The notes below the pieces were generated by a model. It saw only the letters and a list, made by a program, of their open reading frames with translations, searched no databases and was not told the DNA's origin. A stretch of DNA of 33,082 bases, from IMG/VR virus record IMGVR_UViG_3300020050_015720. One strand, given 5' to 3'. This DNA is from a virus (taxonomy: Duplodnaviria > Heunggongvirae > Uroviricota > Caudoviricetes). Made by a program: the position numbers and the translations under genes. Positions 5,964-31,833 of the stretch are shown piece by piece. Within the stretch, counting starts at the first letter, position 1. Each line of letters opens with the position of its first letter.

Positions 5964-6263
5964 ATGGCAAAGGTTTATAACGCAAACAAACAAGCACAGA
6001 TTTCTAAGGTAGCTAAATTAGAGCAGGAGCTTGCTCTTACAAAAGAACAGGCTGCGCAGCTAAAGAATGTAGCTCAAGAATCTGTAAATAGGCTGCTTTT
6101 TATTGAGAGCAAGCTATCTCCACAACTACTTCGTAAGGTTAACTTTTGGAATGTTCTATTCCACTGGAAAGAAGTGGTAGCTATTATCGAGGAAATAATC
6201 TTATTGATTAAGAAGTTCAGGGAGTCTCTCCAAGCTAAACCAGTTGATGACGCTAATCAATAG
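5964..6263 (+). CDS. Hypothetical coiled-coil protein
   Basis: ORF track. Confidence 0.7.
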   Translation: MAKVYNANKQAQISKVAKLEQELALTKEQAAQLKNVAQESVNRLLFIESKLSPQLLRKVNFWNVLFHWKEVVAIIEEIILLIKKFRESLQAKPVDDANQ

Positions 6264-6744
6264 TTTTGATATCTCCAGAGATTTTCATGCCTCTAATCCA
6301 ATGGTGGCGATAGTACTTCCGCCTACTAAGGAAATAGAATCAAAATATTTATGAGCGCTATTCTTATACGCGCACCCTGATTCTAAACTCTATGAACTCT
6401 CTCCACTAGAGAGAAGATCATTGATAGAACAGGATTTCCTAGAAAGAGATCCCTCATTCTCTTGGGATGATTATACTGAGCTCTTAACTCTTATTGAGGA
6501 AAAGGTTCTAACAAAAGCTGAGCGTGCTCTAATGCGCTGGGAAAAAACTCTCCACGAAAGAGATGATTTCATAGCTTCTGTTCCTTATAATGAAACAACG
6601 TATGAGATGAAGGATAAGTTATTAGCAAATACACCCAAACTTTGGGATCAGTATGAGTCTATTTCAGAGAAGCTCTTGAAAGAAAGACAAGCTAAAACAC
6701 ATGGAGACATTGAAGAATCTCTAGCTGAAAAGGGAGATATATAA
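6247..6744 (+). CDS. Conserved crAss-like hypothetical protein (165 aa, with TGA 6352-54 read as Trp)
   Basis: ATG 6247 is in frame with track ORF 6421-6744; reads SKYL(W)ALFLYAHPDSKLY across the TGA. Confidence 0.8.
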
Positions 6745-6794
6745 TTTATAGGGTGGGGACTTTAGGTCTGTGGATTCATAATCCTACCACTCAC

Positions 6795-7055
6795 GGGGAT
6801 GCCTGGCTTTGATTAGGATCGGCGCATCGAAATTAGGACTCAGGTCGTCATTGACGTTAAACACTTTTAAATATAAATGACAACTCATTTGAGCCCGCAC
6901 TTTTAGTGCCAAAGAACTCTACCCGCTTTGTTCCTCAAGAGGTAGAAATTGAAGTAGTTAGTACAGTTTACGCTTAGATAGCAATATCTTAAAACCTGTA
7001 ATACTGTCCTATTTTGATGGATTCTAAAACGCGAGTTCGACTCTCGCCATCTCCA
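6795..7055 (+). ncRNA. ssrA: tmRNA (compact, ~261 nt)
   Basis: Acceptor GGGGATG/CATCTCC with G3-U70 wobble and A73; T-arm GCGAG-TTCGACT-CTCGC; TATAAATG resume motif; tag ORF 6879-6977. Confidence 0.9.
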
Positions 7056-7179
7056 AGCGAAATATCATAGATAAACTAGCGCCACACTATTATATGTGGA
7101 ATATATTACCTGGGACCTTTGGGGGCACCGCTGTAAAGTAGGGCCCCTACCCCCAGGCACTCATTTTGAGTTTTAACAC

Positions 7180-7276
7180 AGGGGGGTTTATTCGTTAGGA
7201 GACGAAAGCAAACTTCAAATTTGCGGAAGCTGGTGTCCAAAACCAGATGATACGGGTTCGAGTCCTGTCCCCCTTG
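7180..7276 (+). tRNA. trnW: tRNA-Trp with two tandem anticodon arms (UCA and CCA)
   Basis: Acceptor AGGGGGG/CCCCCTT, G73; arm 1 GCAAA-CTTCAAA-TTTGC (TCA 7215-17); arm 2 CTGGT-GTCCAAA-ACCAG (CCA 7237-39); ATGAT; T-arm ACGGG-TTCGAGT-CCTGT. Confidence 0.85.
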
Positions 7277-7506
7277 CAAAGGCCTGCCCAAGGCCCACTA
7301 TTCAAATAAGCATGATAGTAAGTGTGTCCTGTAAAAAGGAACGCCGGACTTCCCGTCCTCACGTTTAAATAACAATGGGAAAGAAATAAAAGTCTCGAAG
7401 AAACCATAGCTTAGACTATGAATACATACCTTGTGTGGGGAAAGAACACCCTAAGAGAGACGTAACAACACGACTATAATGTTACAAGGTTTGATGTCGT
7501 TGGTTT

Positions 7507-7666
7507 AGAAATATACTTTGGGAAAGTAGCCACCAAGAAAGACAAGGTGAAAGACCAAACGTCCAGGCACTAAATGCCCTCTTCTGTAATAGAGGGTTGA
7601 TGTGATAATGGCGGCGGTGGCGAGTGAAATTACAGCTCTCTGTAGGTTCGAATCCTACTATTTCTT
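7507..7666 (+). ncRNA. 160-nt tRNA-like RNA (acceptor stem plus T-arm enclosing a multibranch body)
   Basis: AGAAATA 7507-13/TATTTCT 7659-65 perfect 7 bp; T-arm 7642-58 identical to that of tRNA-Ile; internal GCCACC/GGTGGC, TACTTT/AAAGTA and CCCTCT/AGAGGG stems. Confidence 0.6.
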
Positions 7667-7672
7667 CTAATA

Positions 7673-7755
7673 CCCATACCGTGGCTTTAGGGATATCTGA
7701 AAGGTAATCGTTACTGGCTGAGTAAAGGAAGGCCTAAAGACGGAGTAACTATGGG
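7673..7755 (+). ncRNA. Candidate structured RNA (three-way junction on a long stem)
   Basis: CCCATA/TATGGG, CCGT/ACGG and CTTTAGG/CCTAAAG stems plus two internal hairpins. Confidence 0.4.
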
Positions 7756-7769
7756 TAAATTTATAAATT

Positions 7770-7934
7770 ATGAGATTAGAATTAAATATATACAACGAAG
7801 GAACATTGATGTCCCATCTTTCTAGATCTATCACCATATCTGAATATCAGATGAAGTCTTATGAGAATATCTATCATTATCTAACTGTAAATCTTCCTTT
7901 ATTTTATGATGTGAGTAAAAACAACAATGCTTAG
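7770..7934 (+). CDS. Small hypothetical protein (54 aa)
   Basis: Manual translation MRLELNIYNEG...; stop overlaps the next ATG. Confidence 0.5.
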   Translation: MRLELNIYNEGTLMSHLSRSITISEYQMKSYENIYHYLTVNLPLFYDVSKNNNA

Positions 7935-8217
7935 GACTCATGATGAGACTGGGCAAGATCATTCGCAGTTATATGAGATTCCGTTTTATTTTGATCTGTC
8001 TAGAGTCGTTTCAATGCGACCCTTAGAAGAGAAAGAACTTCCAATAAAGTTTCGAAGAAAAACAGCCATTACATTTGGAACTGAGGCAGAAGAATATTAT
8101 ATAAAAGCATCAATAGAAACATTACTAAAATTATTAGGTGGGTCTGATGGTGGTATACAAGTTCAGGAGTTACCTGAAGATACTCCAGTAGCTCCAATCC
8201 TATCTACTCAATTATAA
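7927..8217 (+). CDS. Hypothetical protein
   Basis: ORF track. Confidence 0.7.
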   Translation: MLRTHDETGQDHSQLYEIPFYFDLSRVVSMRPLEEKELPIKFRRKTAITFGTEAEEYYIKASIETLLKLLGGSDGGIQVQELPEDTPVAPILSTQL

Positions 8218-8218
8218 T

Positions 8219-8644
8219 ATGGAACATATGTTTACTAATAAAGGTGGTTCAAGCACCGGTAAGAATCCCTTCGCGACAATGAAGGAAGACACAACAACTT
8301 CAAATACACTAACAAATAAGGGTAGTTACATAACCACAAGCACGGACAGTAATAGCTGCAAAACAATATATCCAGGCTCAGCAACAATTACACATTTAAA
8401 CAACATGACTATCGAAAATAGTCCGTGGATAATTTCTGGGCAGGAATGGGCAAAGGCTGAGCCAATAGCAAAGGCAGAAATGACTTTACAGCAATGGAGT
8501 GATACCTTTAATTACATTACACGCTTATACGAAGTTATCCGTTACCAAAATGATGCCCAAAATCTGAGACAGAGATTATCATTTTCTGTAATTACCTTAT
8601 TGGATATGTTACAAGAAAAACTATTAAATTCAAAACTTAATTAA
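8219..8644 (+). CDS. Hypothetical protein, Thr-rich N-terminus
   Basis: ORF track. Confidence 0.65.
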   Translation: MEHMFTNKGGSSTGKNPFATMKEDTTTSNTLTNKGSYITTSTDSNSCKTIYPGSATITHLNNMTIENSPWIISGQEWAKAEPIAKAEMTLQQWSDTFNYITRLYEVIRYQNDAQNLRQRLSFSVITLLDMLQEKLLNSKLN

Positions 8645-8845
8645 ATGACAAACGAACTTATTTCATTCGGACAATATATCCTTTCTGATTATAGAAAATC
8701 AATGGTAGAGGAACATCTGCAACATCTTGTACACCATGCTGACATAGAAAATTGGCTACACTATACCGAAAGTCAAAAAGCTATCCCAGCGGAAGGGGTG
8801 ACTCCAACAGCTACAGAAATTCTAACACCTGAAGATGCAAATTAA
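8645..8845 (+). CDS. Hypothetical protein
   Basis: ORF track; abuts upstream stop. Confidence 0.7.
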   Translation: MTNELISFGQYILSDYRKSMVEEHLQHLVHHADIENWLHYTESQKAIPAEGVTPTATEILTPEDAN

Positions 8846-9083
8846 AGTTGAAATAAAATACTCGCTTTGGCCATACGAAGAAACCATAGCAGTTACTATT
8901 CCAACTGATGAATTTGATAAATTAGATTCCTATGTGGACTCTATCACGTCAAATTTAAAAATGCAGATCTTAGGTAGAGTGAGAAAACAGCATCCTAGTA
9001 TTTGGTATAAGGATACAACATTAAATATTGAACAATTAAAGCAGTTAACAAATGTCGATGCCGATAAAGGAAATATCGTATAA
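8835..9083 (+). CDS. Hypothetical protein
   Basis: ORF track. Confidence 0.65.
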   Translation: MQIKVEIKYSLWPYEETIAVTIPTDEFDKLDSYVDSITSNLKMQILGRVRKQHPSIWYKDTTLNIEQLKQLTNVDADKGNIV

Positions 9084-10647
9084 AGAAGTAACACAAGATA
9101 AACTATTGCAAGGAGCTAAAACTATTGCTGATATAGTAGGGTCTACCTTAGGCCCAATGGGTAAGAATGTGATTATAGAGACTCAATATGGTGCTATTAC
9201 TGTAACAAAGGATGGTATCACGGTTGCCTCTCATGTAACCTTGGAAGATCCAACAGAGAATATGGCTGCGTCTATTATCAGACAGGCCGCTGATAAGACT
9301 GCCACTCTTGCTGGTGATGGTACAACTACTTCAACAGTAATTGCCGCCGCCTTAGTAAAGCAAGCACTTAAACTAGTTAAGCTTGGTTATCAACCTATTG
9401 ATATAAAGCGTGCTTTTGAGCAGCTCTTGCATAAAACAAGGTTATCATTAACCAAGAAGGCATCTCCTGTTGATTCTGAAGATATATTAAAGATCGCTAC
9501 AATCTCAGCAAATAATGACGAAGTTATTGGCGGCTTAATTCACTCAGCTTTTGAGTATGTTGGCAAGGAAGGCCTAATCACTCTGGGAGATTCTAAGACC
9601 GGTAGAACAGAAGTAGAATTAGTTCCTGGAGTATCTATAAACAAAGGCTTTGCTTCTCCATATTTTATTACTGATTCAGCAAAAGGAGAAGCAGTATTAG
9701 AAAAGCCACTTATTTATATAACTGACAATAAACTACGTACGCTGGAAGATGTTGTTCCTATACTAGAGATGGCACATGAACAGAAGAGATCCCTCTTAAT
9801 TCTTTGTGATTCTATAGATGGACATGCACTTCAGATTTTGGCTGTAAATAAACTCAAAGGAACTGTTAGAGTAGCAGCTGTTGAAGGACCTTCATTTGGA
9901 GAGAATCGAGCTGAACTTTTAAAAGATCTTGCGGCTCTTACTTCAGCAAAAATTCTAAGTAACAATGCGCCAAACTCAGATTTTGGTAAGCACTACTTAG
10001 GAAGAGCTGAAAAGATAATAGTAACAAAAGATAAGACTATTTTTGTAGAACCAGTCCGAAATGAAGCTGAGATAGAAGATCGAGTAAAGATTGTTCAAGA
10101 GCATTTGGCTAACAGTGAAAATGCTTACATGACAACTCAGTATCAGAAACGGTTAGCAGATCTAAATGCAAAAGTAGCATCTATTAATGTTGGGGCTCCC
10201 ACCGAGACAGAACAAAAAGAAGTAAAGGATAGAGTAGATGATGCTCTTAGAGCTACCTCAGCAGCTGTTGCTAAAGGTTACTTGTTAGGAGGTGGTACTG
10301 CTCTTTTATGGGTAGCAGAAGAACTCCAATCGGATAATCCTATCACACAAGCTTTTACAGACGCATTAAAAGAGCCTCTTAGGGTTATTATAAATAATGC
10401 TGGTAGGAATGCTGAGGCAATCATAGAAAAAATCACAGACAAAAATGATCCTGAGTATGGATATAATGCTAGGACATTAGAATTTGACAATTTAAAGACC
10501 AGAGGAATTATTGATCCTTTATTAGTCGTAGAACAGGCGGTCACAAACGCTGTTTCAGCAGCAAACATGTTGATCTTATCAGATGTTGCGCTAACTAATT
10601 TGGATAGAACTCCTCCATATTCTCCTCCGGCTATGGACTATGCTTAA
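9052..10647 (+). CDS. groEL: Chaperonin GroEL (Cpn60)
   Basis: TLGPMGKNVII, ITVTKDGITVA, AGDGTTTSTV, GGGTALL and GIIDP motifs; 531 aa. Confidence 0.97.
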   Translation: MSMPIKEISYKEVTQDKLLQGAKTIADIVGSTLGPMGKNVIIETQYGAITVTKDGITVASHVTLEDPTENMAASIIRQAADKTATLAGDGTTTSTVIAAALVKQALKLVKLGYQPIDIKRAFEQLLHKTRLSLTKKASPVDSEDILKIATISANNDEVIGGLIHSAFEYVGKEGLITLGDSKTGRTEVELVPGVSINKGFASPYFITDSAKGEAVLEKPLIYITDNKLRTLEDVVPILEMAHEQKRSLLILCDSIDGHALQILAVNKLKGTVRVAAVEGPSFGENRAELLKDLAALTSAKILSNNAPNSDFGKHYLGRAEKIIVTKDKTIFVEPVRNEAEIEDRVKIVQEHLANSENAYMTTQYQKRLADLNAKVASINVGAPTETEQKEVKDRVDDALRATSAAVAKGYLLGGGTALLWVAEELQSDNPITQAFTDALKEPLRVIINNAGRNAEAIIEKITDKNDPEYGYNARTLEFDNLKTRGIIDPLLVVEQAVTNAVSAANMLILSDVALTNLDRTPPYSPPAMDYA

Positions 10648-12895
10648 AGCAACAGATGTGGTAATCAAAGATATACCACAATACCACCCCCTCTCGGTGG
10701 ATTACAAAAATTTTTGGAGAGAACAAAGAAGAAAGTGTATTGAAGGTGCTTGGGCCAGTGGGATGTATATTCCGCCGGCCCTTTACTATTATGTAAACTT
10801 TCATACTATACGACTGAATAAGAAAGGATCAGCCTTAAAGACCTTTGATCGGCCCTGGTTAAGGGATGTTGAGTATAGATTCTTTAATTACTATACTGAG
10901 GCTAGGGGTTTCTCTGGATTTGCTGATGACGATGAATATTCATCAAATGTAATATTGTTAGACGAAGATATAACGGATGATATATTGATGTTGTATCACC
11001 CTAATACTATGTCATCCTCGACAGGCCAAAGGAAAACATATGTCCCAGCTAGAAAGGCTTTGTTCCAAACTTATGAACAACCTCTTGGAAGGGCGTTATT
11101 TGAGAACCCATTGCAGAATTTCATGCTATTAGGCTCCCGTGAGTCCGGCAAGTCTTACATGGTTTCAAGTTTAATTGGGCATAATTTTTTAATGGATGGT
11201 GCAACTGTCTATAATGAATTTACTCGTAAATATCCCGATCCAGTCGAACTCTTAGTAGGAGCTGAAAAGTCGGACAGATCCGCCGATCTATTAAAAAAGG
11301 TTAGAGACGCTTTTGACCAGTTACCAGGAAAACAGTCTTTGCATGATCGTACATACCCATCCCCATTCTCCAAAAGATATAAGGGATCTTGGGAAGTAAA
11401 TAAGGAGATCATTGCCGAATATAAAAAGAAGGAGCAAGGAGCCTGGGAAGTATCGGGCTCTAAATCATCTATAAAGCATAGATCTTTCGCAGCTAATTCC
11501 TTTGCAGCACAAGGTACTCGTCCACTACTACTAGTTTTAGAAGAAGCGGGTATGTTTAGTGGCCTAAAAGATGTGTATGCCAACACTGTGGATAACCTTA
11601 GAAACGGCCTACGAAAGACAGGCATGCTTATGATGCTTGGTACCGGTGGTGACATGACCCGTGGTACTTTAGATGCCGCCGAGATGTTTTATGAACCAGA
11701 TAAATATGGTATATTAGCTTTTGAAGATACTTGGGAGCACAGAGGTAAGATAGGTTATTTTCTTCCAGCTTATGAAGTACTCAATGAATATAAGGACCCA
11801 GAAACAGGTGTGTCTAATATAGATGCAGCGAGAAAGGCCCTTATAAATGTAAGAAAAAAGAAAGCTGGAGATTCTGGTGGGTCTGAAGCACTAAACAAGG
11901 AAATGCAATATCGTCCTATTGTGCCTTCCGAAATGTTCTTAACTAAGACAGCTAACATATTTCCTACGGCTGAATTAAGGCGACGATTGTCTGAGATTCA
12001 AACCCACAAAATGCAGGATTACTTAGAAAAGAAGGCAGTCCTATATTTTGACCCAGACGCCAAAGTTTATAATGGAGTAAACTACGAGATTAATGAAAAA
12101 CTCACAGCCATCAACAAGTTTCCTTATGAAGGCGAAGAATTAGAAGGAGCGGTTATACTGTATGAACTTCCAAAACTTATAGACAGTGCTGTGCCAAAAG
12201 ACGCCTATATAATAGGGTGTGACCCCTATAAAGATGATGGGCAAAGTGGAACTTCTTTAGCCTCTATATATGTTATCAAGACAAACAAGTACCCATCAAC
12301 TGTCGGATTCTCTGAGATAGTTGCGACCTACATAGGGCGCCCTTACCTTGGTAAAAATCAAGTGAACGAAATTCTCTATAAACTCTCTCTTTTCTATGGA
12401 AATGCAAAGATATACTTTGAGAATAACGTAGGTAACGTAAAAGATTATTTTGAGAAGATAAGACGTTTAGACCTCCTAGCCAGACAACCAGTTACGATAT
12501 TTAATCGAAAGGCTGCTTTTGAGGGATCTCCTCAAGTAGTCTATGGGTATCCATTATCAAACGATAAAGTAAAATGGGAGGCCCTTCAATATGTTAGATC
12601 TTTCTTACTAGAGGATCGAGGAGATGGAAAAAGAAATTTGGATTTAATACCAGATCCAGCACTATTACAAGAATTAATAGCTTACAACTTAGACGGTAAC
12701 TTCGACCGCGTTTCATCCCTTATAGGATGTATCTTAGGACTAGAAGAGTTATCAAATTTAGAGCAACGTAAGGTTTTTCACCAGGCAGAGTTTTCTCAGT
12801 TAGAAAAAGACCTTGATCGGCTTATTATAAATAATAATAGATTATTTAATGTTCAATTTACCCAAACAACGACAGTCCTACGAAGCGAAGTCTAA
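10640..12895 (+). CDS. terL: Terminase large subunit, crAss-like
   Basis: Walker A GSRESGKS, Walker B LLVLEEAG, GTGG motif, nuclease IIGCDPY and FDRVSSL; directly upstream of portal. Confidence 0.93.
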   Translation: MLKATDVVIKDIPQYHPLSVDYKNFWREQRRKCIEGAWASGMYIPPALYYYVNFHTIRLNKKGSALKTFDRPWLRDVEYRFFNYYTEARGFSGFADDDEYSSNVILLDEDITDDILMLYHPNTMSSSTGQRKTYVPARKALFQTYEQPLGRALFENPLQNFMLLGSRESGKSYMVSSLIGHNFLMDGATVYNEFTRKYPDPVELLVGAEKSDRSADLLKKVRDAFDQLPGKQSLHDRTYPSPFSKRYKGSWEVNKEIIAEYKKKEQGAWEVSGSKSSIKHRSFAANSFAAQGTRPLLLVLEEAGMFSGLKDVYANTVDNLRNGLRKTGMLMMLGTGGDMTRGTLDAAEMFYEPDKYGILAFEDTWEHRGKIGYFLPAYEVLNEYKDPETGVSNIDAARKALINVRKKKAGDSGGSEALNKEMQYRPIVPSEMFLTKTANIFPTAELRRRLSEIQTHKMQDYLEKKAVLYFDPDAKVYNGVNYEINEKLTAINKFPYEGEELEGAVILYELPKLIDSAVPKDAYIIGCDPYKDDGQSGTSLASIYVIKTNKYPSTVGFSEIVATYIGRPYLGKNQVNEILYKLSLFYGNAKIYFENNVGNVKDYFEKIRRLDLLARQPVTIFNRKAAFEGSPQVVYGYPLSNDKVKWEALQYVRSFLLEDRGDGKRNLDLIPDPALLQELIAYNLDGNFDRVSSLIGCILGLEELSNLEQRKVFHQAEFSQLEKDLDRLIINNNRLFNVQFTQTTTVLRSEV

Positions 12896-15260
12896 AAATA
12901 ATTTTGCTTGGGCTAAAGAGGTTATTGATTCCATACTTAGCTACACGCCAACAAGTCAAGGAGTTATAAACGCGCCAACGTCGGACTACCAAAGAAAATT
13001 ATCAAACTATCAACTCTATAATAATGAGTTGAATCAAGCCGATTTCGAACGAGAGTGTAATCCATTAGGACTAGATGTTGGCCAATTTAAAGACACAATT
13101 CAGCCCTATAATAAAACTTATAATAAGATACAGATCTTACTTTCGGACCTAACAAAACGTCCTTTCAATTATAGAGCCATTCTGGTCAATAGTGAAGGCG
13201 TAAGATCAAAGTTATTCTATAGGGACACACTGTTCAAACAATATATTGAAAAGGTACTTCTAGATGCAAAGCAAACTGCCATGGGTTTAATGCCTGAGGA
13301 CAGTGAAGATACGTTAATAGATCCTAAAGACGTTTCTAGATACATGCGATATGATTATCGTGAGCGTAGGGAATTACTGACCCAGGCTCTCTTACAGTAT
13401 TTTTCTAGAGCTTTAGATATAAAAGATCTAAAGGTAGATACATTCAAGCATGCTCTAATTGCTGGAGAAGAGATTGTGTATGTAGGAACAGAGAATGGAG
13501 AACCAAAAATAACCGTGGTTAATCCATTAGGATTCTTCTGCCACAAGAGCGCTGAAACAAAGTGGATCCAAGATTCACTTTATGCGGGGTATAAAACCTA
13601 TATGACTGTATCAGAAGTACTTGATCGTTATGGTAAGTATCTTTCAGAAGATCAGAAAGAGCAATTGGATACAAATACAGGCACAACCAACCCAGTGCGG
13701 GAATTCACTATGGGTGCCACCGCTAAATACGGTAACTCAGCCTATGACCCTATTCTTGATATTGAGTCAGCCGACCATGGTAGTTACGGCAAACGTAACA
13801 CAGAAGATATACTAGTTTCCCATGTTGAATGGGTATCCCAAAGAAAGGTTGGATTTATAGAGTATCAAAATGAATTTGGGGAGACAGAATCTAAAATGGT
13901 TTCTGAAGATTTTGAGATCCCTACTATCTATACTAAAGAAGTAGTAACCAGAGCTTATGGTGCTAAAACTACGTATTTTATATGGGAAGTTGATGGTGTT
14001 TTCTATAAATTAAATTGGGACTATATTCCTGAAGTTTGGACAGGCACAAAGATTGGGCACAACATCTACACGATGATAGGTCCAAAAGAGCTGCAGTATC
14101 GTTCTGTTGACAATCCATACAAGGTGAGCCTAGGATACCATGGTATTATATATAATGCTATGAATGCGGGCTCAGTCTCTCTTATGGATAGAATGAAACC
14201 TTTCCAATACCTTTACTTTATAGTAATGCATAAGCTTAAAGAGCTAATTGCGCAAGATCAAGGGAAGGTATTTCCTTTTGACATATCTATGGTGGATCCA
14301 AAGATAGGCTTAGAGAAAACACTCTACTATTTAAAGCGTATGAATATAGATCTCTATAATTCATTAGCTAACGGGGATATGCCAGGGCAAAGTCAGAGAG
14401 GCAAGGTTACTGGTGTTGCAGACATGTCAAATATGCAGCATATACTAAATTACATTAGTATACTATCGGCTATTGATGCTCAAATTTCTGAAGTAGCTGG
14501 TGTCTCCAGACAGAGGGAAGGACAAACTACTCCAACTGAAGCAGTATCAAATGCTCAGTCGAACATAATGATGTCAGCGCTTATAACTGAAATCTACTTT
14601 CAGACACATGCAAAACTTTGGGAAAAGATCCTTTCTTCTTTGGTATATACTGCTAAGTACGCTTGGAAAGGTCAGAAGATAATAAAACAATATGTGTTAG
14701 ATGATCTATCATTAGCAACCCTTGAGATGGATGCCGATGAATTATTAGACTGCGATCTCGGTATATTTGTGACAGATTCAGGTAAAGAGCACGAAATGTT
14801 CCAGGCCTTGAAGGGAATTTCTGATGGTCTGTTAAATACAAACAGAGCTACATTCTCCGATCTTATTACTCTGTATGAAAGTAACTCAGTAGCAGAATTG
14901 AAACACGCAATCAAACAGTCAGAGGAGACTACCTTTGCAAGAGAGAGTGAGAATCAACAAGCAGCTTTTCAGGCTTCAAAAGAGGAACAAAAGGCTCAAC
15001 AAGAATTTGAACTCTTGAAGCAACAACTAGAACATGAGCATAAAGAAAGACTAGCGCAAATAGAGGTATTCAAATTCCAACAAGATCTAGATATAGATAA
15101 CAATGGAATTCCCGATCCCTTAGAAGTACAAAAGTTCCTAAATGATGCTAAAAATGATTCTCGTAAACTAGATATTGAAGAGAAAAAATTAGCCCAAGAT
15201 AAGGAATTACGCGAAAAAGAGATCAAAGAAAGAGCTAAAAAGGCCTCTAAAAAAACATAG
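12849..15260 (+). CDS. Portal protein, crAss-like
   Basis: 803 aa; YNKTYNKIQILLSD...RPFNY, EVWTGTKIG and SLMDRMKPFQYLY motifs; charged C-terminus; TerL-portal-X-MCP order. Confidence 0.9.
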   Translation: MFNLPKQRQSYEAKSKNNFAWAKEVIDSILSYTPTSQGVINAPTSDYQRKLSNYQLYNNELNQADFERECNPLGLDVGQFKDTIQPYNKTYNKIQILLSDLTKRPFNYRAILVNSEGVRSKLFYRDTLFKQYIEKVLLDAKQTAMGLMPEDSEDTLIDPKDVSRYMRYDYRERRELLTQALLQYFSRALDIKDLKVDTFKHALIAGEEIVYVGTENGEPKITVVNPLGFFCHKSAETKWIQDSLYAGYKTYMTVSEVLDRYGKYLSEDQKEQLDTNTGTTNPVREFTMGATAKYGNSAYDPILDIESADHGSYGKRNTEDILVSHVEWVSQRKVGFIEYQNEFGETESKMVSEDFEIPTIYTKEVVTRAYGAKTTYFIWEVDGVFYKLNWDYIPEVWTGTKIGHNIYTMIGPKELQYRSVDNPYKVSLGYHGIIYNAMNAGSVSLMDRMKPFQYLYFIVMHKLKELIAQDQGKVFPFDISMVDPKIGLEKTLYYLKRMNIDLYNSLANGDMPGQSQRGKVTGVADMSNMQHILNYISILSAIDAQISEVAGVSRQREGQTTPTEAVSNAQSNIMMSALITEIYFQTHAKLWEKILSSLVYTAKYAWKGQKIIKQYVLDDLSLATLEMDADELLDCDLGIFVTDSGKEHEMFQALKGISDGLLNTNRATFSDLITLYESNSVAELKHAIKQSEETTFARESENQQAAFQASKEEQKAQQEFELLKQQLEHEHKERLAQIEVFKFQQDLDIDNNGIPDPLEVQKFLNDAKNDSRKLDIEEKKLAQDKELREKEIKERAKKASKKT

Positions 15261-15326: not shown

Positions 15327-16346
15327 ATGCAAAATAATGATGATTTTCTAGCTACGATGCTAGCAGACACACCACCAGTAGAACCTGTGCCACCAGCTGA
15401 TCCTCAAGACATTGATATTGTGGATTCTCCACCTACCGATCCTGAAGAGGCTGTCGTTGAACCCCCTGAAGAAGGAGATGCTCAACTTCAAGCCTATGTT
15501 GAATTTTTGACCGAAAATGAGTTAGTAGAGCTTCCTGAAAACTTTGAGTTTAAAGGAACACCAGCTGAGTTAGAGACTATATTTTCCTACACAAAACAAC
15601 GTCAGGTTGAAAAAGCAGCTGAAGCACTAGCAGCCTCTCTTCCTCAAGAGTTCAAGTCTGTATTAGACTACGCTCTAAACGGTGGACAGGATATCAAATC
15701 TTTTCTTGAAAGGTATGGTGTCGATCCTCTAATGAACGTAGATCTAACGACTACTGATGGACAAAAAGAGGCAGTATTTTTAGCACTAAAGAAAACGTCT
15801 AATTACTCTGACGAACGCATAAATAAAATAGTTGAACGGTTAGCTGAAGTTCCAGAAGATCTAGCTGAGGAGGCAAATCTTTCTTATGCAGAACTTCAGG
15901 AATTACGAAAACAAGAGCAAGATGCAGAATTACTTTCATTGAAAGAAAGTGATAGAATAGCTCGTGAAAAAGCTGAGGCAAAAACACAAGCATTGGCTGC
16001 GGCGATTGAATCTTCCCCAAGCGTTCATCCACAACGAAGAAATAAGGTCAAAGCATTTTTCTTTGATCCAATAAATACTCCTTCTGGAGTTAGTACTGGC
16101 TTTAACCAAGCCATCAATTCTATTTTAGCTAATCCTGAGCATCAGGCCCAACTAGCTGATCTATTACTGGAATACGATCCTTCAGCAGGCTTCTCTTTAG
16201 AGAGGCTTGAGCGTAAGGTGAAAACAAAAGCAACCCAACAATTCCAAGAAGCCTTAAGTAGGACTCTTGACCCAAAACAGGCCCAACGTGCCTCAACAAA
16301 ACCTCCACAGACTAATACCGATGATTCTGTTCTGTGGAACTTATAA
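15327..16346 (+). CDS. Acidic scaffold-like protein between portal and MCP (conserved position in crAss-like phages)
   Basis: Pro/Asp/Glu-rich N-terminus and coiled-coil middle; position in the module. Confidence 0.7.
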   Translation: MQNNDDFLATMLADTPPVEPVPPADPQDIDIVDSPPTDPEEAVVEPPEEGDAQLQAYVEFLTENELVELPENFEFKGTPAELETIFSYTKQRQVEKAAEALAASLPQEFKSVLDYALNGGQDIKSFLERYGVDPLMNVDLTTTDGQKEAVFLALKKTSNYSDERINKIVERLAEVPEDLAEEANLSYAELQELRKQEQDAELLSLKESDRIAREKAEAKTQALAAAIESSPSVHPQRRNKVKAFFFDPINTPSGVSTGFNQAINSILANPEHQAQLADLLLEYDPSAGFSLERLERKVKTKATQQFQEALSRTLDPKQAQRASTKPPQTNTDDSVLWNL

Positions 16347-16351
16347 TAACT

Positions 16352-19300
16352 ATGGCAAATCCTCAATCTTCCTTAATCATTAAACAGTGGGATTCCTTTG
16401 GAGGTTCCTTCATTGATTCCGATTATTTGGCGCAGGCCTATGACGGTGGCAAACCATCTTACCTGCCAGGAGCTCTTATGAAAATCTTTTCATCTGGTTC
16501 CGACTTTTTTAAAATTAAACCCTTCCTTAGCCTTACTGGCATGGGAACAAACGGAGGTCTCGAAGTTGAAAGTGAAGTAGTTCGCTGGAGGCTTCAAGGT
16601 GCAGAGCGCAAATCAGCTCGTGTACTTGAAAATGTAGAGGCTTCAAATCTGACTCCAGGTTTGAATCAAACACCTTTCCGTGTTAAATTAGATCTTGATT
16701 ACTATCAGCATCCTGATGTTATCCAAGGTGAAGACAATGACTTCAACCTTCAGGTAATGGATAAGATTACTGATGGTACTGGAACTATCTATACTCTTCG
16801 TATTTTGACTGATGATCCAACTAAATTCTTGGATCCTAAGTATCTTTCTGCGGGTCGTGCTTTTGATAAAGTATCAACAGCCGTTGCCTCTGAAGCAAAC
16901 GGAGTATTCGGTACCCAACAGTACCCAAACATCTTTGAACTTGCTAGCCAATTAGGCGCTTTTGCTCAGAAGATCGAAGTAACCGATAAGGCTTAACTTT
17001 AGGCCCTTTATATAGAAATATATATCGAAGAAGTTTCTTAATTGCTGGAAACCCCTAAAGACTTAGGTACTTTACAAGTAACAATCCTAAGTATGAAACA
17101 ATGGGCAATCAGCAGCTAAATTATAAAATGGAACATCTACCAAAAACAAAAGGAGATTGGACTTTACTAAGAATTGTAAAGAATAAGCTAGGCAGGGCTA
17201 AACTTAGATTGCAGTGTAAATGTGGAGTTCAAAGAACAGTTGACAAATGAGATTACCTAAATCTCGGAAAAATATCTGAGAAATTAAATTTAGGTTTTTC
17301 ATGCGCAAAATGTGCACACAAACTCTACTGGGCAAACAAAGAGAGCAAAGAGCTCTATAAGCTAATTCATATGGATTACGCTCAGCAAGCAAAAAGGAGA
17401 AATATACTTTTCAATCTAACACAAGAGGAAAGTTATCAATTGTTTACATCTTCTTGCCATTATTGTGGAGTACAGCCCGCGAATATCAAAAAACATGGTA
17501 GAAACAAACAAATCTCTTTCGCGTATCAGGGAATAGATCGAGTAGATCCAAACAAAGGTTATACTCACGATAACGTTCTTCCGGCTTGTCGGCACTGTAA
17601 CTACGCGAAAAGAGAAATGACTTACCTTGAGTTTATATCTTGAGTAAGTACTGTCCATTATAATTTAGTTCAACGACTATCCCCCAAAGGGAGTAGGGCC
17701 AAGTGGTCCGAAACAGAAACCTCCTCTTCTCAGGAGATGATATAGTCTGTTCTCATGGGAAACCATGAGCCGTTTATAAATTTGCCAGTTTATAACGAGA
17801 ATAGTGTAACGAACTATTCTGAACAAAAAGTGGAGACAACAAGGCCGCCTTGGCTTTGAATTCCTTGGCACCGATCCTAATGGTTCTACCAAAACCGTAT
17901 CTAAGTTCCTTCCATATGCTGAAGCTATGATGGTTGATGAACTTTACAAATCCATGGAGTGGGCACTGGTTTACGGTGAAAAATCTACTCTTAAGGGTCC
18001 AGACGGTTACTGGCAAAAAACAGGTCCTGGTGTACGCCAACAATTGAAAGATTCTTGGATTCAGTATCTCAATGGTCCTATTACTGTAAATCTTCTTCAA
18101 GATTTCTTGTTGAACATTTTCTTTGGCCGCACTGACGAAGCAAATCGTGGAATCACAATGATAAACTACCCGTTGTCTCGTGTAATAGTAATATTGCATT
18201 AGAAAACCTTTCTATATGCTGGAAACTCTTAAAGGTTTAGTTCCTATTATAATAGGTGCGAAAGCAGAAACAATACTAAACATTAGCTATGATGAAAAAT
18301 TCTAAGGCCGAAGTAATAGACAATCAGCAGATAACTATAATCAATACATATCTAAAAATAAGATCAATCTCAGGAACAGCAAGAGAACTACGACTCCCTT
18401 ACAGGGCTGTCAATAGAGTTCTTGTTCAGTCAAAATTAGCTGGAATTAAACGAAAGCAAAAAACCAGAACTCTTCAGATTGATTATTTCAAAGAGATCAA
18501 TACGCCGGAGAAAGCCTATTTTTTAGGATTACTTCACGCAGATGGATCCATTGTAAAAAGAACCAATGCAGATAAGTTTAATATGACTATCTCCCTGCAC
18601 GAGCAGGACAAAAAGATACTACTGCGTTTTGCTCAGTGTATTAACCTAGAGCCAGAGAGAGTCACTGCAAATCCCCAACTACGAGGTAGTTTGCAATATA
18701 AAATATCCATTGGTATTCAAGAGTTTATAGAGCCTATTTTAACATTAAAATCTCCGGAGATTTTAAATAAGCTTCCAAGTAATATGTATTCGCATTTTAT
18801 TCGTGGAGTATTTGATGGTGATGGGTCTATTTACAATCATAAAAGTCACGGTGGTAAACAATATTATTACTATGCAAGCTTTATTGGTTACACATGATTA
18901 TTGAATTGAATTCAAGAGGTGTGCCCAGTTAAAGCATCAAAAATCCGAACAACAAAACATAACGGAATTTCGCGCATAGAATATTTTAGCCAAAATGATT
19001 TATTGGACTTGGAAAACTTTCTTTACAAAGACTCAACTGTGCACCTTGATCGAAAGTACTCAAAATTTTTAGATATGAAATTGAATTATAGCATCTCAAC
19101 GACTAAACGAAAGGCGTCCCAACTTAAAAAAGCGGACGATGATATAGTCTAATCTCATTAGAGATAATGAGTTAATAATATGGACGGGACAACTTGGTCA
19201 GCTACTGTTCCACAACGCACTTGTCGCTGTTGCTAATGGTTTCTTGACCGTTGATTCACACTTCGTACGTTCTGCTTCTAATCCTGGTTCTTCTACTCCT

Positions 19301-19705
19301 GGTCTTGCTTATGGCGCTCAATTTGTAGAATACACAGGGCCACTTGGAATCAAGATTCGTCTTGTACACAATCCAATGTACGATTCTTTGCAGTATTGCA
19401 AACGTATGCACCCGCTTTATCCAAATATGCCTATTGATTCAGCTCGTATGACTTTCTTGAATATTGAAGGTCGCGGTGTTGAAACAGCACAAGGACTTGG
19501 CAAGAATCTTGAACTCTTGAAAGTAAAAGATACTTTCCGTTACTTCTATGTACCTGGATCCGTTACTCCAATGGGCCCAATTACAGGAAAAGGATTCGCG
19601 GTAACAGCTAAAGCTGGTTACAGTGTTCACATTGAGGGTACTTTAGGTGCCATCATTCGTGATGTAACTTCTTGCGGAGAGCTCATCACAGATTTCGAAG
19701 GATAG
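16352..19705 (+). CDS. Major capsid protein (~498 aa) in three exons: 16352-16993, 17831-18162, 19183-19705
   Basis: Joined reading ...EVTDKA|WRQQGRLGF...NRGITMM|TGQLGQLLFHNAL...GELITDFEG; crAss-type MCP features; ATG 16352 preferred over track GTG 16334. Confidence 0.88.
16994..17830 (+). mobile_element. Group I intron 1 in MCP (837 nt)
   Basis: 5' exon ends in U; P1 AAGGCU with GGCCCU (U-G wobble at G17002); P10 CUUUA with UGGAG; TGCTGGAAAC, GCAATCAGCAG, GTTCAACGACT and GATATAGTCT core elements; terminal G at 17830. Confidence 0.88.
17128..17745 (+). CDS. Intron-encoded HNH-type homing endonuclease (205 aa with TGA=Trp at 17248 and 17641)
   Basis: CKCG, CAKC, CHYCG and GIDRVDPNKGYTHDNVLPACRHCNYAK; C-terminal YLEFIS(W)V matches the family Trp position. 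Confidence 0.85.
18163..19182 (+). mobile_element. Group I intron 2 in MCP (~1020 nt; 5' splice site could alternatively follow 18159)
   Basis: TGCTGGAAAC, GACAATCAGCAG, TCAACGACT and GATATAGTCT core; P9 CTCATTA-GAGA-TAATGAG; P10 CCCGTT with exon GACGGG; terminal G at 19182. Confidence 0.85.
18289..19152 (+). CDS. Intron-encoded LAGLIDADG homing endonuclease (287 aa with TGA=Trp at 18895 and 18907)
   Basis: KAYFLGLLHADGSI and HFIRGVFDGDGSI motifs; track ORFs 18289-18897 and 18919-19152 share a frame; reads FIGYT(W)LLN(W)IQEV. Confidence 0.88.
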
Positions 19706-22019: not shown

Positions 22020-23399
22020 ATGATCCCGACCAACTCAAATAAACGCGGCGTTGAAAAATTCATCGTTGCAAAAAGCAGCTCAACAACTGTACCTGTAACT
22101 GGTACACTCTCTAATTCAACTACTGGCAACGTAAATCTTGCTGATGGTCAAATTGGTATCGTTGCAGCTTCTTCTTTCGGTACTGTTGCTCTCAATTCTT
22201 TTATGGACGCAACCCCAACTTTGGCTGAAAATGCTGTTATACGCATTGTTCAAGGTACCCCTTATTCAAGTAATGTCAACGGATCCACTGCTAATTATCC
22301 GCTGTGGGTTCGGTCTTTGGAAACTTCCCACGATATTGATGGAAGAAACAATAACATACTTGTAACAAAGCAAGCATTTCGTCTTGCTGCTCATAATGCT
22401 TGGGTAGTAGGCGTACCTACTGCGGCTACTTCTGGTGACATCAACGTTTTAGATGAAACAGAATATCGCCTGTCTATTGGCTTCCGTTCTCGTCGCTATG
22501 ATGAGATGATGGCAACAAGTGTACTGGCTAATACTTTAACTATCTCTAAAGTAACTCCAAACTTCACAGACTTGGCAGCTACCTATCCACTTCCTATTGA
22601 CTGGATTGTAACTCAATTTGGCTACGAAGTGAATCGTAATTCTGCTGCTTTCTTGGCTTACAATCGTTACAGGGGAACTTCTCCAGTTGTAGCTTTGGCT
22701 GTTGGTGAAGCTCTTTCAGGACCAGGTGGTGCTGCTGCCGGTGTTGCTATTTCTTCACTAGTTGCTGGTGATACTCTTGCAGTATTTAACTATCGTGGTG
22801 TTGTTCGTTCAATCACTTTGTCAGCAGAAATGTTGGCTTCTTTGAATGCTGCAGCAACTGCTTCTAGCTTTACACACGTATTCACTATTGATCTTGCTAA
22901 TGCAGGAACAAACGTAGGTGGTACGGCTACTGGCCTTATCCTATTAGCTCTTGACCATTCAATGGCTTATTCTGATAAGATCCCACAGGTAAAGGTAAAC
23001 ATGGACGTGAAACTTCCAGCTGGTTTCAACTACCAAACTGTTTCTAACGTAGAAGCTGTACGTCCTGATGAAGGACAAGGGTATGGTCGCGTTTTGGATC
23101 TTTGGTATAAAGCTACTGATGGCCAACGTAAGTACGAGCAAAATCATACTGTTGATCCGGTTATCACCTTCCCTTCTCCAGTAGAAGTTGCCCAGCAATA
23201 TGTTACTTATGTTATCCACCACGGTGATTTGCAGAACAATGATTTCCATCATTCTGCTTATGGACCAAAACGTGAGATAGTGTTGATACCTAGGTATTCT
23301 ACTGGTACCACACCTCATCCAGTTATTGCTCTTCTTGACACGGCGTTAAACTCTTGGTTGCCTTCAACTGGCAATCCGTCTGTATTGACTCTCGTGTAG
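22020..23399 (+). CDS. Virion structural protein (auxiliary capsid-like)
   Basis: 459 aa with MCP-like codon bias; GQGYG...L.YKATDG motif; followed by a terminator. Confidence 0.6.
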   Translation: MIPTNSNKRGVEKFIVAKSSSTTVPVTGTLSNSTTGNVNLADGQIGIVAASSFGTVALNSFMDATPTLAENAVIRIVQGTPYSSNVNGSTANYPLWVRSLETSHDIDGRNNNILVTKQAFRLAAHNAWVVGVPTAATSGDINVLDETEYRLSIGFRSRRYDEMMATSVLANTLTISKVTPNFTDLAATYPLPIDWIVTQFGYEVNRNSAAFLAYNRYRGTSPVVALAVGEALSGPGGAAAGVAISSLVAGDTLAVFNYRGVVRSITLSAEMLASLNAAATASSFTHVFTIDLANAGTNVGGTATGLILLALDHSMAYSDKIPQVKVNMDVKLPAGFNYQTVSNVEAVRPDEGQGYGRVLDLWYKATDGQRKYEQNHTVDPVITFPSPVEVAQQYVTYVIHHGDLQNNDFHHSAYGPKREIVLIPRYSTGTTPHPVIALLDTALNSWLPSTGNPSVLTLV

Positions 23400-25475: not shown

Positions 25476-25479
25476 CCAA

Positions 25480-27753: not shown

Positions 27754-27759
27754 TAAATT

Positions 27760-29385
27760 ATGGCAGCAACAAAAATTACTCCTAAACAAATAGTTGGAAC
27801 AGGAGCTAATACTAATGATGTGCTGGCCTTCAATGGAACAGATTGGACTCCTACTGCCCCTTCAGGTGGTGGGAGTTCTTCTGGTATCGCTGGAGCAGTT
27901 CAAATATCTGGAGGTTCCGGTACATTTTCTTCAGACGCAACAAATTTCTTTTTCGATGATACTACTAATCAGTTACAACTAACTGGCGGCACGTCTTATG
28001 GAATTCGTATTCAAGGTCAAAATGGTGGTGTTGATGCTTCAGCTAGTTCAGCAGTAACAGGAGCATTTACTCCATTTAGAAGTAATACAAATGCAACAGG
28101 CTCTGTAAATCTGAACCTCACAAATTCAAATACTAGTTCTGCAACAGCCCACACTGTACTAACTTTAAGTACATCAGTAGGTGGAGGAGATCCGTTTGTA
28201 AAACTAAATACTGCTGAAATAGGTTATGTTATTGGCGTTGATAATTCTGGTTCTGATAAATTATTTATTGGATTAGGAACTGATCCTTCTACAATGTCGT
28301 CTGCCAATATTACTATTTCTAGTATTAATACTGGTATATCACAAACTAGTCCAACAGCCAAATTGCATATTTCAGGTGGAACAGCTACTGCAAATACGGC
28401 TCCTATTAAAATAGATTCTGGAACAGCATTAACTACTCCTGAAGATGGAGCTTTTGAATATCATGGAACCCACCTTTATTTTACGATAGGTTCAACTAGA
28501 TACCAATTAGACCAGCAAGCATCCAGTTTAACTGATGGCGACTATGGTGATATTACAGTATCTTCGGGTGGTACAGTTTGGACGATAGATAACTTAGCTG
28601 TAACCAATGCAAAAATTAATGATGTTTCTATTAGCAAATTAACATCTGGAACATTTGCGGCTTCTTTATCTGGAACTCTTACCACTTCTTCAACTTTTAG
28701 AGTAAACTATGCGGGTAGTAATACTGCCTTATTAGTAGATGATGTGTTGTCGGCTACATCTATGTATTCAAAAGACGGTACACAATATTTCTATGCAGAT
28801 GATACACTACTTATAATGGGTAGTGGTACATCAAAGATGGAATATGTAGATGGTGTTTTGAAGCTTTATGATTCGGATGCCACCCATTTTGTTGGGATAC
28901 AGACTCCTGCTACTGCTAGTTTGACTACTTCTTACACATTAACTCTTCCAACAACGGATGGTAATGCTAATGAAGTTTTACAAACCAATGGTTCTGGTGT
29001 ATTATCTTGGGCTACTGCTGGAAATGTAACCCTGACAGGTACTGAAACATTAACAAATAAAAGAATAGAGCCTAGAGTTGTTTCTATAACAAGCTCATCA
29101 ACACCTACTCCAAATGCTGATGTTACAGATATTTATTTAATTACTGCATTAGCTGCTGGAGCAACTTTTGGTTCTCCAACTGGAACACATGTTCAAGGAC
29201 AGAAGCTTATGTATCGTATTAAAGATAACGGTACTGCTAGGGCACTTTCTTATAATGCTGTGTTTAGAGCAGTTGGTGTAACTTTACCAACAACAACAAT
29301 AATTAACAAAACTCTTTACTTAGGCTGTGTTTATAATGCTACTGATACTAAGTGGGATATAATTGCAGTTGCAATGGAACCTTAA
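27760..29385 (+). CDS. Tail fibre-like protein (541 aa)
   Basis: N-terminus MAATKITPKQI paralogous to MAQTKVKLKQL; TLTLPTTDG..NEVLQTNGSGVLSW; C-terminal KWDIIAV. Confidence 0.75.
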   Translation: MAATKITPKQIVGTGANTNDVLAFNGTDWTPTAPSGGGSSSGIAGAVQISGGSGTFSSDATNFFFDDTTNQLQLTGGTSYGIRIQGQNGGVDASASSAVTGAFTPFRSNTNATGSVNLNLTNSNTSSATAHTVLTLSTSVGGGDPFVKLNTAEIGYVIGVDNSGSDKLFIGLGTDPSTMSSANITISSINTGISQTSPTAKLHISGGTATANTAPIKIDSGTALTTPEDGAFEYHGTHLYFTIGSTRYQLDQQASSLTDGDYGDITVSSGGTVWTIDNLAVTNAKINDVSISKLTSGTFAASLSGTLTTSSTFRVNYAGSNTALLVDDVLSATSMYSKDGTQYFYADDTLLIMGSGTSKMEYVDGVLKLYDSDATHFVGIQTPATASLTTSYTLTLPTTDGNANEVLQTNGSGVLSWATAGNVTLTGTETLTNKRIEPRVVSITSSSTPTPNADVTDIYLITALAAGATFGSPTGTHVQGQKLMYRIKDNGTARALSYNAVFRAVGVTLPTTTIINKTLYLGCVYNATDTKWDIIAVAMEP

Positions 29386-29389
29386 GGCT

Positions 29390-30088
29390 ATGGCAAATAT
29401 TTTATTTACAAGTACAACTAACTGGACTTGTCCTCAAGGCGTAAATCGAATTTATGCTGAATGTTGGGGAGGAGGTGGTGCCGGAGGTGGTGCTACAGGA
29501 TATCCTTCTGCCGGAGGAGGTGGTGCTGGTGGCTGTTATGCTGCTGGATATGTAAATGTAACACCAGGAACATCTTATACTATAACAGTAGGTACTGGCG
29601 GAACAGCCACAACAGGAGATGGAGGTTCAGGTAATACCTCTTCTTTTGCGAGTAGTATTATTGCAGTTGGCGGTGGTGGAGGAAGTGCAGCTACTACAGA
29701 CTTTTCAAACGGTACAGGTGCTACAGGATCAACTTCTGGAAGTTCAGGTGATGTAATATATGTAGGTGGCAACGGTACAAACGGAGCTTTTGGCAGTTTT
29801 GCAGGAGCTGGTGGAGGAGGTGCAGGTTCTACTGGTGCTGGAGGTAATGCTTCTAGTAATACAGCAGGTACTGGTACATCACGTTATGGAGGTAATGGTG
29901 GAGCTGGAGTTGCAACTGGTGCAGGACAAGCGGGTTCGTCCACATTACCAAGTAATCCTTCTTATGGTGGAGGAGGTGGTGCTGGTAGAGCTAATACTAC
30001 TACTGATAGAGCTGGAGGTGCTGGAAGACAAGGATTAGTTAGAATAACATTTCAATCAGGCGAATTTTTACAATTTATGTACCCTTAG
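29390..30088 (+). CDS. Glycine-rich domain protein (fibre-associated)
   Basis: TNWTCPQGVNRIYAECWGGGGAGG...YTITVGTGG...GLVRITF; ATG 29390. Confidence 0.75.
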   Translation: MANILFTSTTNWTCPQGVNRIYAECWGGGGAGGGATGYPSAGGGGAGGCYAAGYVNVTPGTSYTITVGTGGTATTGDGGSGNTSSFASSIIAVGGGGGSAATTDFSNGTGATGSTSGSSGDVIYVGGNGTNGAFGSFAGAGGGGAGSTGAGGNASSNTAGTGTSRYGGNGGAGVATGAGQAGSSTLPSNPSYGGGGGAGRANTTTDRAGGAGRQGLVRITFQSGEFLQFMYP

Positions 30089-30089
30089 T

Positions 30090-30551
30090 ATGACTATAAC
30101 AATAAACACAGATTGCTCTCAAGCAACCCTAACTTCCGAAATATTGCTGACATTGAATACGGCAAATACATTAACAGTTACGTATAAGGGCACATCTTAT
30201 ACCGTAACAGTACCAACAGGCATCACAAGTTTTACTCTTCTACCAGAGCATTTAGCTATGGAAGGAGTATTTTCTTCGGGTGTCTACAGTTTAAAATTCA
30301 CGAATACACTAATCTCTAGCAGTGTGCAAACAGATACTGGTTGTGCAGTTGTTCTTTGCGATTTAAAATGCACAGGTGCAACTCTAAGTTGGTACAGTGA
30401 TAAAAAAGACATTACAAAAGTTCTTTACTACGAAGCTTTAAAAGCTGTTCAAGATTGTCCTACCTGTAATTGCACTTTACTTGAGACTCTTTTTAACACT
30501 ATAACTACCGATGAGTCTATCTCCTGCACAAATTGCTGCTGCCAAATGTAA
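30090..30551 (+). CDS. Putative virion protein with Cys-rich C-terminus
   Basis: ORF track; CPTCNC and CTNCCCQM. Confidence 0.65.
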   Translation: MTITINTDCSQATLTSEILLTLNTANTLTVTYKGTSYTVTVPTGITSFTLLPEHLAMEGVFSSGVYSLKFTNTLISSSVQTDTGCAVVLCDLKCTGATLSWYSDKKDITKVLYYEALKAVQDCPTCNCTLLETLFNTITTDESISCTNCCCQM

Positions 30552-31833
30552 CTTTGTTACAAAAACCACTTCTTTAGCGCAGTGTAAAAAATACAATATT
30601 GATTGTTGCTCCAATGAAGAAGAAATGAAAGCTGCGTTCCTTCTTTATAAAGAAGCACAACTAACTAGTGATGATTGCACTATATCTGACGGTGCTGTTT
30701 GTTCTATTCAAAATTTAACACCTGTTATCAATGCTTGCACAAAACCGCCAACTTGTTCGGATTTGTTTTCTTGTACTGTAAAGAAATTTTTATCTGGCGG
30801 TGTTTACACAAAAGCTATTGAAAATAGTTTAGATGCAACTGCTTATATGTCCATAGAACTAACACCAAATTCTGTTGCTCAACCAGCTAAAGCTCGTGCG
30901 ATAGTGTATGATTCTTCCGGTGTTGTTATGGATGAGGAATTCACAACGGGGAAATATTTCGACGGTTTAATTGTGAATACAGGAGACGAATACCACCCCC
31001 ATGTTGGTATCCAATTTGGTATGGGTCCGTGGTTAGGCGCAGCAAACTCTTACATAAAATCTATACGCCTGTATCACTACAATAGTGGTGTTATTGGATT
31101 TACCGACTTAGATATTTCTCCAACAAATATATGGACTTGTCCGAGCTGCACCGCGGTAGATCCGGCCGACCTCTATTTTGATGCTCCAAATGTTCATTTA
31201 GCTGTTCAAGCTCAGATAGAGAACGCAATCAAATCTACTGACGGAGCATTAAACGCCGAGATAGAAGTGAGTAAGAGTACGACGAATCTTGGTACTCACT
31301 TGGTTTTGAGTACAAAAACTAAACATTTACCTACTTTTAAGTGGTGGGGACTGTCCACAAGTGACATTAACATACAATACTTTTGGGCTCCAGAAAACAC
31401 TGTAAAGAGTATTGGAGTAGGTTCTAATCTTTTTGCAAACACTGTTTACTCCGGAACTGGATGAGCCTATGAGAACTATTCTTTCGTAACTCCTTGTGCT
31501 ACCAGTTTATTGACTGTGAACGGAAATGCACTACCACAAGCTACAAACGCTTCAACGTTTTACTCAATCAGCTTATCTTCTCCAATAACTACAACAGTGG
31601 TCACAAACCCACCTTTAGTATTATCTGGGAGTATTCCTGATTGTTATGCTTATAATTTAGAAGCTTTAGTAGATAGCAGTGTTCCTCATACACAGCAATG
31701 GTTATCGCCTAGTAATGTGGTACTAGGAACTGCTCAAACATTAAGCCTTACAAACCCAGTACATGGCACCTATAAGTATATTGCAGCTTTCTCAGGGTCT
31801 GATTGTACTATAACGAAAAATATTACACTTTAA
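30511..31833 (+). CDS. Putative virion protein (440 aa with TGA 31462-64 read as Trp)
   Basis: Track ORFs 30511-31464 and 31510-31833 share a frame; reads VYSGTG(W)AYENYSFVTPC without another stop. Confidence 0.75.

Follow-up and report, generated by a model that had tools for sequence, protein, structure and literature searches.

Reading of UGA as tryptophan in a crAss-like phage, and a family of phage suppressor tRNAs with two anticodon-like arms

The stretch of DNA analysed here (IMG/VR record IMGVR_UViG_3300020050_015720; 33,082 nucleotides, hereafter the window) comes from a crAss-like phage, of which it covers the head and virion block, and our subject is a small set of in-frame TGA codons in its genes together with a five-arm tRNA gene at 7180-7276; the genes and RNAs that concern them all lie on the plus strand. 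The major capsid protein (MCP) gene (16337-19705) is divided into three exons (about 16337-16993, 17816-18187 and 19172-19705), which match PF23898 and hold no TGA. The two stretches between the exons are probably group I introns, each with one endonuclease open reading frame (ORF): an HNH / endonuclease VII-like ORF in the first (17101-17745), with TGA at 17248 and 17641, and a LAGLIDADG endonuclease ORF in the second (18289-19152), with TGA at 18895 and 18907. The TerL and portal genes (10640-15260; PHROG matches at 3e-102 and 2e-110, respectively) contain 15 TGG codons and no TGA. Two further genes carry a TGA each, namely a 440-residue gene of the virion block without an assigned function (30511-31833; TGA at 31462) and a conserved crAss-like gene, also without one (6247-6744; TGA at 6352), which lies directly upstream of a cluster formed by a phage transfer-messenger RNA (tmRNA; 6795-7057, Rfam RF00023, present also in the related loci L002, L006 and L030) and the five-arm tRNA. 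The crass-type MCP, TerL and portal, with ring-protein genes downstream in the nearest relative, place the phage in Crassvirales, and 47 related loci (45-84% identity) were collected through TerL for comparison.

A first-pass annotation had described this as a Crassvirales phage that reads these six TGA codons, and tentatively a seventh at 1836, as tryptophan. All of the listed codons are present and in frame, and translation of TGA as Trp yields full genes over the four intervals given above. The chance of a frame staying open for so long past the TGA lies between 2e-5 and 5e-3 for five of the sites and is 0.11 for 17641. Alignment with homologues puts each of the six on a Trp column. At 6352, the residue is W in 13 of the 14 relatives that lack a TGA there. 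The columns at 17248 and 17641 hold W in the homologues P0123 and P0124 and those at 18895 and 18907 hold W in P0003, the codons at these columns in the P0123 and P0003 genes being TGG, while the 31462 column holds W in P0001 (94% identical) and F in P0002 (52%). Taken together, these comparisons make it nearly certain that TGA means Trp in this phage. The codon at 6352 is TGA in the window and in six further loci (L002, L006, L011, L030/L042 and L033) and TGG in the others; a feedback role for this TGA, given its place just upstream of the tmRNA and tRNA, is possible.

The same alignments bear on the idea that the TGAs are nonsense mutations or errors of assembly. Four of the sites do fall in intron endonucleases, which often decay, and 1836 fits a CGA-to-TGA change. 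However, all six main sites stand on Trp columns, the TGAs at 17641, 18895 and 18907 are repeated in two other assemblies, and in-frame TAG and TAA are nearly absent from the alignments that show TGA columns. We regard this explanation as refuted for the six main sites and give it almost no credence overall. The TGA at 1836, in a short ORF start at 1797-1838, is a different matter: the ORF has no family match and no homologue among the related loci, one related contig has CGA (Arg) at this position, and the Trp reading is not supported. Homologue comparison thus confirms six of the seven candidate sites as real Trp codons.

Within the window the recoding is sparse. There are 6 TGA against 89 TGG Trp codons, and the 40 plus-strand genes stop at TAA (29) or TAG (11) and never at TGA, which bears out the earlier observations that most Trp codons are TGG, that TerL, portal and the MCP exons are free of TGA and that no credible gene here ends in TGA. 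The distribution is also uneven, with TGA making up four of the seven Trp codons in the two intron endonucleases and 2 of 88 elsewhere (p=1.6e-4). The first-pass annotation had explained such figures by a low-density or early-stage reassignment in which a few chosen genes become conditional on the tRNA. The small share of TGA (6 of 95), its concentration in the endonucleases and the recurrence of TGA at 6352 in several lineages all agree with this idea, but the relatives do not. In the best-supported nearest clade, taken from a quick version of the TerL tree, six of six lineages have TGA at Trp columns, TerL and portal included; relatives carry up to 11 such codons in TerL and portal, and their PolA and DnaB genes contain TGA as well. 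The positions of TGA differ between lineages and follow the class of gene, 6352 being the sole exception. Across recoded loci, TGA accounts for 3 of 121 Trp codons in the class made up of capsid, scaffold, chaperonin and the gene at 22020, for 82 of 437 in TerL and portal (p=1e-6 between these two classes) and for 9 of 20 in intron endonucleases. The description as early-stage is therefore contradicted, the notion of a few chosen genes gives way to one of gene class, and low density holds for the virion block and fails for the replication genes of the relatives. We consider it unlikely that selected genes have been made conditional on the tRNA in this way.

The block structure of the code is visible in the relatives, where it was counted. 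The replication blocks of two relatives have TGA inside the PolA, DnaB, AAA, primase and helicase genes, with TGA:TGG ratios in the long ORFs of 17:26 and 13:29 (counts that include a few terminal TGAs). A block of small genes in relatives, on the other hand, stops at TGA, often in an ATGA overlap with the next start. The reassignment is accordingly not complete: the absence of TGA stops, from which the first-pass annotation had argued, holds for the window (0 of 40 genes) and fails in this one block of the relatives, and the persistence of such stops in close relatives agrees, by inference, with its proposal that the tRNA competes with host release factor 2 (RF2). UGA therefore appears to keep both its stop and its Trp meaning, according to gene block. 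We envisage that host RF2 would stop at UGA until the phage tRNA with the UCA anticodon is made, after which UGA would be partly read as Trp, and the code would switch at some time during infection. The code is split accordingly: in the relatives one block stops at TGA and replication genes use TGA freely for Trp, intron endonucleases tolerate it, and virion genes, as seen in the window, avoid it both as a stop and as a sense codon. The sparseness of TGA in the window would then reflect the avoidance, in abundant virion proteins, of a codon exposed to competition from RF2. For annotation, translation table 4 is needed for four genes of the window, and the same table over-extends genes in another block of the relatives.

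TGA as Trp is already known in crAss-like phages, and the recoding described here is a further member of that group. With the crAss-like phages already described as using table 4 (PMC7886860, Yutin et al. 2021; PMC12386605, Zeta phage Lera), the likeness extends to membership of Crassvirales, TGA as Trp in part of the genome, a phage tRNA(UCA) and introns with homing endonucleases. The pattern among genes differs, since recoding in the gut phages is reported to affect mostly late or structural genes (PMC7886860; 10.1101/2021.08.26.457843), whereas here the virion block is nearly free of TGA and the replication genes of the relatives are richest in it.

The tRNA gene at 7180-7276 has the features of an opal suppressor tRNA-Trp(UCA) with five arms. 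It has a 7-base-pair acceptor stem with A1-U72, G73 at 7276 and no encoded CCA end, a D arm at about 7191-7206 and a T arm at 7252-7268. The decoding arm (7208-7224) is a hairpin of 5 base pairs and a 7-nucleotide loop with the anticodon UCA at 7215-7217, and a second hairpin of the same dimensions, which we call the spare arm, occupies the variable-arm position (7230-7246) and displays CCA at 7237-7239, with G at loop position 32. Two of the marks of tRNA-Trp identity, G73 and A1-U72, are thus in place, and the third, CCA in the anticodon position, is replaced by UCA. Standard bacterial and phage tRNA-Trp(CCA) shares with this gene A1-U72 and G73, as well as a CCA hairpin with a short variable loop and the T arm behind it; the present tRNA differs in the extra UCA arm inserted before that hairpin. 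The UCA arm, in the normal anticodon position, would pair with UGA, and we think it very probable that this tRNA is the UGA decoder, in keeping with the earlier suggestion of a UCA/CCA phage tRNA in that role. The five-arm design recurs with different stems in L004/L006, L033 and L037; in the nearest relative, L002 (4666-5485), the UCA loop of the dual-arm tRNA is split by a 722-nucleotide group-I-like intron with an HNH-type ORF inside. In L007, L010 and L030 the tRNA(UCA) is of the ordinary single-arm kind. The tmRNA region of L002 is also followed by an endonuclease-like ORF and by a repeat of the 3' end of the tmRNA, and at about 5960-6010 of L011 lies the 3' half of a dual-arm tRNA, apparently following an intron and broken again at the T loop.

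Viral contigs scanned with a sequence pattern gave 101 matches: some 70 were five-arm tRNAs with complete pairing, and some 30 were chance matches without it. About ten more dual-arm tRNAs came from genome contigs, which may be prophages or mis-binned phage contigs. Among 72 distinct dual-arm tRNAs, all have G73, 67 have U72 and 57 have A1-U72. Pairing in the spare stem reaches 91%, against 49% in shuffles of these related sequences, and the stems covary, most columns showing four to six kinds of standard pair. The pattern used in this first scan required CCA in the second loop. A rescan that left the second loop free found 81 distinct long-arm UCA matches, comprising 26 tRNA-Sec, 2 junk sequences and 53 others, and UCCA was present in the extra arm of 52 of these 53, although the rescan was blind to that loop. 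The reverse order of arms, with CCA first, gave 28 pattern matches, none of which folds. We also examined amber (CUA) tRNAs of other phages (L399-L441) as a control in which no extra arm was expected; the long-arm CUA tRNAs carried YUGA, containing the Gln anticodon, in the extra arm in 25 of 28 cases and UCCA in none. In the extra arms of Ser, Leu and Tyr tRNAs UCCA was absent, and YUGA was found in 3/54, 0/36 and 0/13, respectively (3/103 together). With dominant ORFs counted and one vote given per site, the TGA columns of dual-arm carrier loci hold W at 135 of 237 sites, F or Y at 48, S at 3 and C at 1, and W ranks first in 53 of 61 informative dual-arm loci, against 0 of 9 tRNA-Sec loci. 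The TAG columns of the amber carriers hold Q at 11 of 35 sites, which is weakly informative. Release factor genes turned up in 2 of 50 records, with one RF1-like gene in a dual-arm carrier (L391) and none in the crAss-like relatives searched.

Existing software does not name this RNA well. ARAGORN labels 7180-7277 a tRNA-SeC, relaxed ARAGORN settings return only noise, and Rfam has no match at its gathering score, tRNA-Sec (RF01852) reaching 34.7 bits against a gathering score of 47. The ARAGORN label would accord with a Ser- or Sec-type tRNA, with its long arm and G73, through which UGA would mean Ser or Sec; SerRS does use arm size and G73 (PMC9976931), and 7 of the 72 dual-arm tRNAs have Ser/Leu-like D arms. 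Yet the acceptor branch is 7/5, the score is below the tRNA-Sec gathering level, A1-U72 is found in 57 of 72, and the TGA columns hold W and not S or C, so that this reading seems to us very improbable. The tRNA-Sec call itself was rejected on the W columns (C at 1 of 237 sites), a branch that is 7/5 and not 8/5 or 9/4, and the sub-gathering score. Bacterial tRNA-Sec, allo-tRNAs and the selC* tRNA-Cys(UCA) do resemble the phage dual-arm tRNA in their UCA anticodon, long extra arm and length of about 95 nucleotides (Mukai et al., PMC5389517; review, PMC7609411). Their acceptor branches, however, are 8/5, 8/4 or 9/3, and the residue that they insert is Sec, Ser, Ala or Cys (PMC5389517, PMC7609411), whereas the phage tRNA combines a 7/5 branch with elements of Trp identity and an extra loop in which CCA is fixed. 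The 8/4 or 9/3 branch of allo-tRNAs and selC* tRNA-Cys, and the U73 of the latter, are likewise replaced by 7/5 and by G73 in 72 of 72.

What, then, might the spare arm do? Bacterial TrpRS (tryptophanyl-tRNA synthetase) recognises G73 together with the CCA anticodon (PMC2965240, PMC9976931), and G36 is a determinant for GlnRS (PMC9976931). The simplest reading is that the spare CCA arm supplies a lost identity element, because a UCA anticodon loses C34; the YUG arm of the amber tRNAs fits the same reading because CUA loses G36. The spare-arm CCA, with G73 and A1-U72, would let host TrpRS load Trp, and on balance we favour the view that the spare arm is a charging handle for the host synthetase. 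By the same modest preference, we see these RNAs as a natural class of phage tRNA in which one anticodon hairpin serves the ribosome and the other the host synthetase (UCA/CCA for Trp, CUA/YUG for Gln), which would permit recoding without a synthetase of the phage's own. To the overall explanation, a code split by block and a tRNA that separates decoding from charging, we assign a probability of about 0.6.

One alternative holds that both arms decode: the tRNA would refold, UGA being read by UCA in one form and UGG by CCA in the other. The spare arm is indeed a full hairpin of 5 base pairs and 7 loop nucleotides followed by a variable loop of normal length, and one member of the family matches annotated phage tRNA-Trp genes over its 3' half. 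But the spare loop has G at position 32 in 37 of 72 sequences and, in some, U at position 37, and 23 of the 72 have a non-standard closing pair; CCA is never the first arm, the extra arm of amber tRNAs often has only a short stem or a loop of 4-5 nucleotides, and several carriers also have a separate CCA-loop tRNA-like match. We judge it improbable that both arms decode. In another alternative, the spare arm would act as a decoy, or would bind a partner that is not a synthetase, such as an anticodon nuclease or a modification enzyme, or would be removed in maturation. The same Trp/Gln pattern would be expected with any enzyme that recognises the loop of the cognate anticodon, and single-arm versions work in relatives. 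The triplet displayed is, however, precisely the determinant for the synthetase that the suppressor mutation abolishes in either code (PMC9976931), and phage TrpRS was seen only with single-arm tRNAs in the records sampled: a TrpRS gene is present in 0 of 31 dual-arm and 3 of 15 single-arm records (Fisher p=0.03, kinship not corrected). The three carriers are large phages (L388-L390), in one of which the TrpRS gene adjoins the tRNA. We hold a decoy or removal to be possible, if doubtful.

Several points weigh against a charging handle and the split code that accompanies it. Close recoded relatives (L007, L010 and L030) use a single-arm tRNA(UCA), and TrpRS was not found in two of these three, those that were searched; the spare arm is thus not required, because single-arm relatives recode without a detected TrpRS. 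As a handle, it would need a synthetase to touch the variable-arm loop and the acceptor end simultaneously. A decoy or modification-enzyme role predicts the same association with Trp and Gln. The 72 dual-arm sequences are, moreover, related and not independent, and their kinship inflates the contrast between observed and shuffled pairing. Finally, the block pattern was counted in relatives, and the window itself covers the virion block only.

The available parts of the papers on table 4 crAss-like phages mention no second anticodon arm (PMC7886860, PMC12386605), and we found no description of a two-anticodon tRNA in the literature searched, which did not cover subscription journals. Borges et al. 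(10.1101/2021.08.26.457843) left the charging of phage suppressors open and expected non-canonical tRNAs. As in their phages, the suppressor tRNA is carried by a phage whose host uses the standard code, and the phage usually lacks a synthetase of its own; the difference is that no structure was described for those suppressors, whereas here there is a conserved extra arm with the cognate anticodon. The spare arm thus bears on a question left open by the recoding papers, namely how host synthetases that read the anticodon charge phage suppressors. If the charging-handle reading is true, decoding and charging identity would be separable onto two arms of one tRNA, which would offer a design rule for code-expansion suppressors. 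Dual-arm genes also explain some 'missing' suppressors, which are mislabelled as tRNA-Sec, missed by Rfam or split by introns.

As to origin, the arms within a single tRNA resemble each other no more closely than arms taken from separate tRNAs, so that a recent internal duplication is not shown. L154 has, at 6228-6321, a tRNA-Ser(UGA) whose long arm ends in a 7-nucleotide loop one base off the spare-arm loop; given this tRNA and the Ser/Leu-like D arms noted above, the dual-arm design may have more than one origin. A blastn search with one family member found no cultured phage with a full dual-arm gene, the best match being an unannotated faecal fragment.

The window has other RNA-like elements. 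At 1619-1782 there is a tRNA-like gene with a UAU anticodon arm and a D-loop insert of some 88 nucleotides (fold z about -2), of which Rfam matches the 3' part only, and at 7520-7668 a tRNA-like RNA with a T arm and acceptor-like ends and no clear anticodon arm. L002, L006 and L011 have, at a place similar to the latter, Leu-like long-arm tRNA-shaped RNAs with variable, degenerate anticodon loops. L002 shares the conserved noncoding blocks 7388-7510 and 7642-7784 (at 92% and 82%, respectively), as L011, L006 and L004 do in part; these blocks have no Rfam match and are possibly structured RNAs or promoters.

The stretch was found mostly in DNA metagenome runs from wastewater, sediment and freshwater, with no RNA sequencing run among those listed. 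From their translations, a GroEL-like chaperonin gene (9052-10647) can be recognised just before TerL and a small GroES-like gene further upstream (5603-5959). A SLOG/YspA-like gene (1963-2298; PF10686) has a frameshift near 2010, where 8 extra bases in other contigs restore the frame. Lastly, TAnnTTTG boxes, which we take to be the Bacteroidota-type promoter consensus, occur at 1572, 4000, 4689 and 15318.

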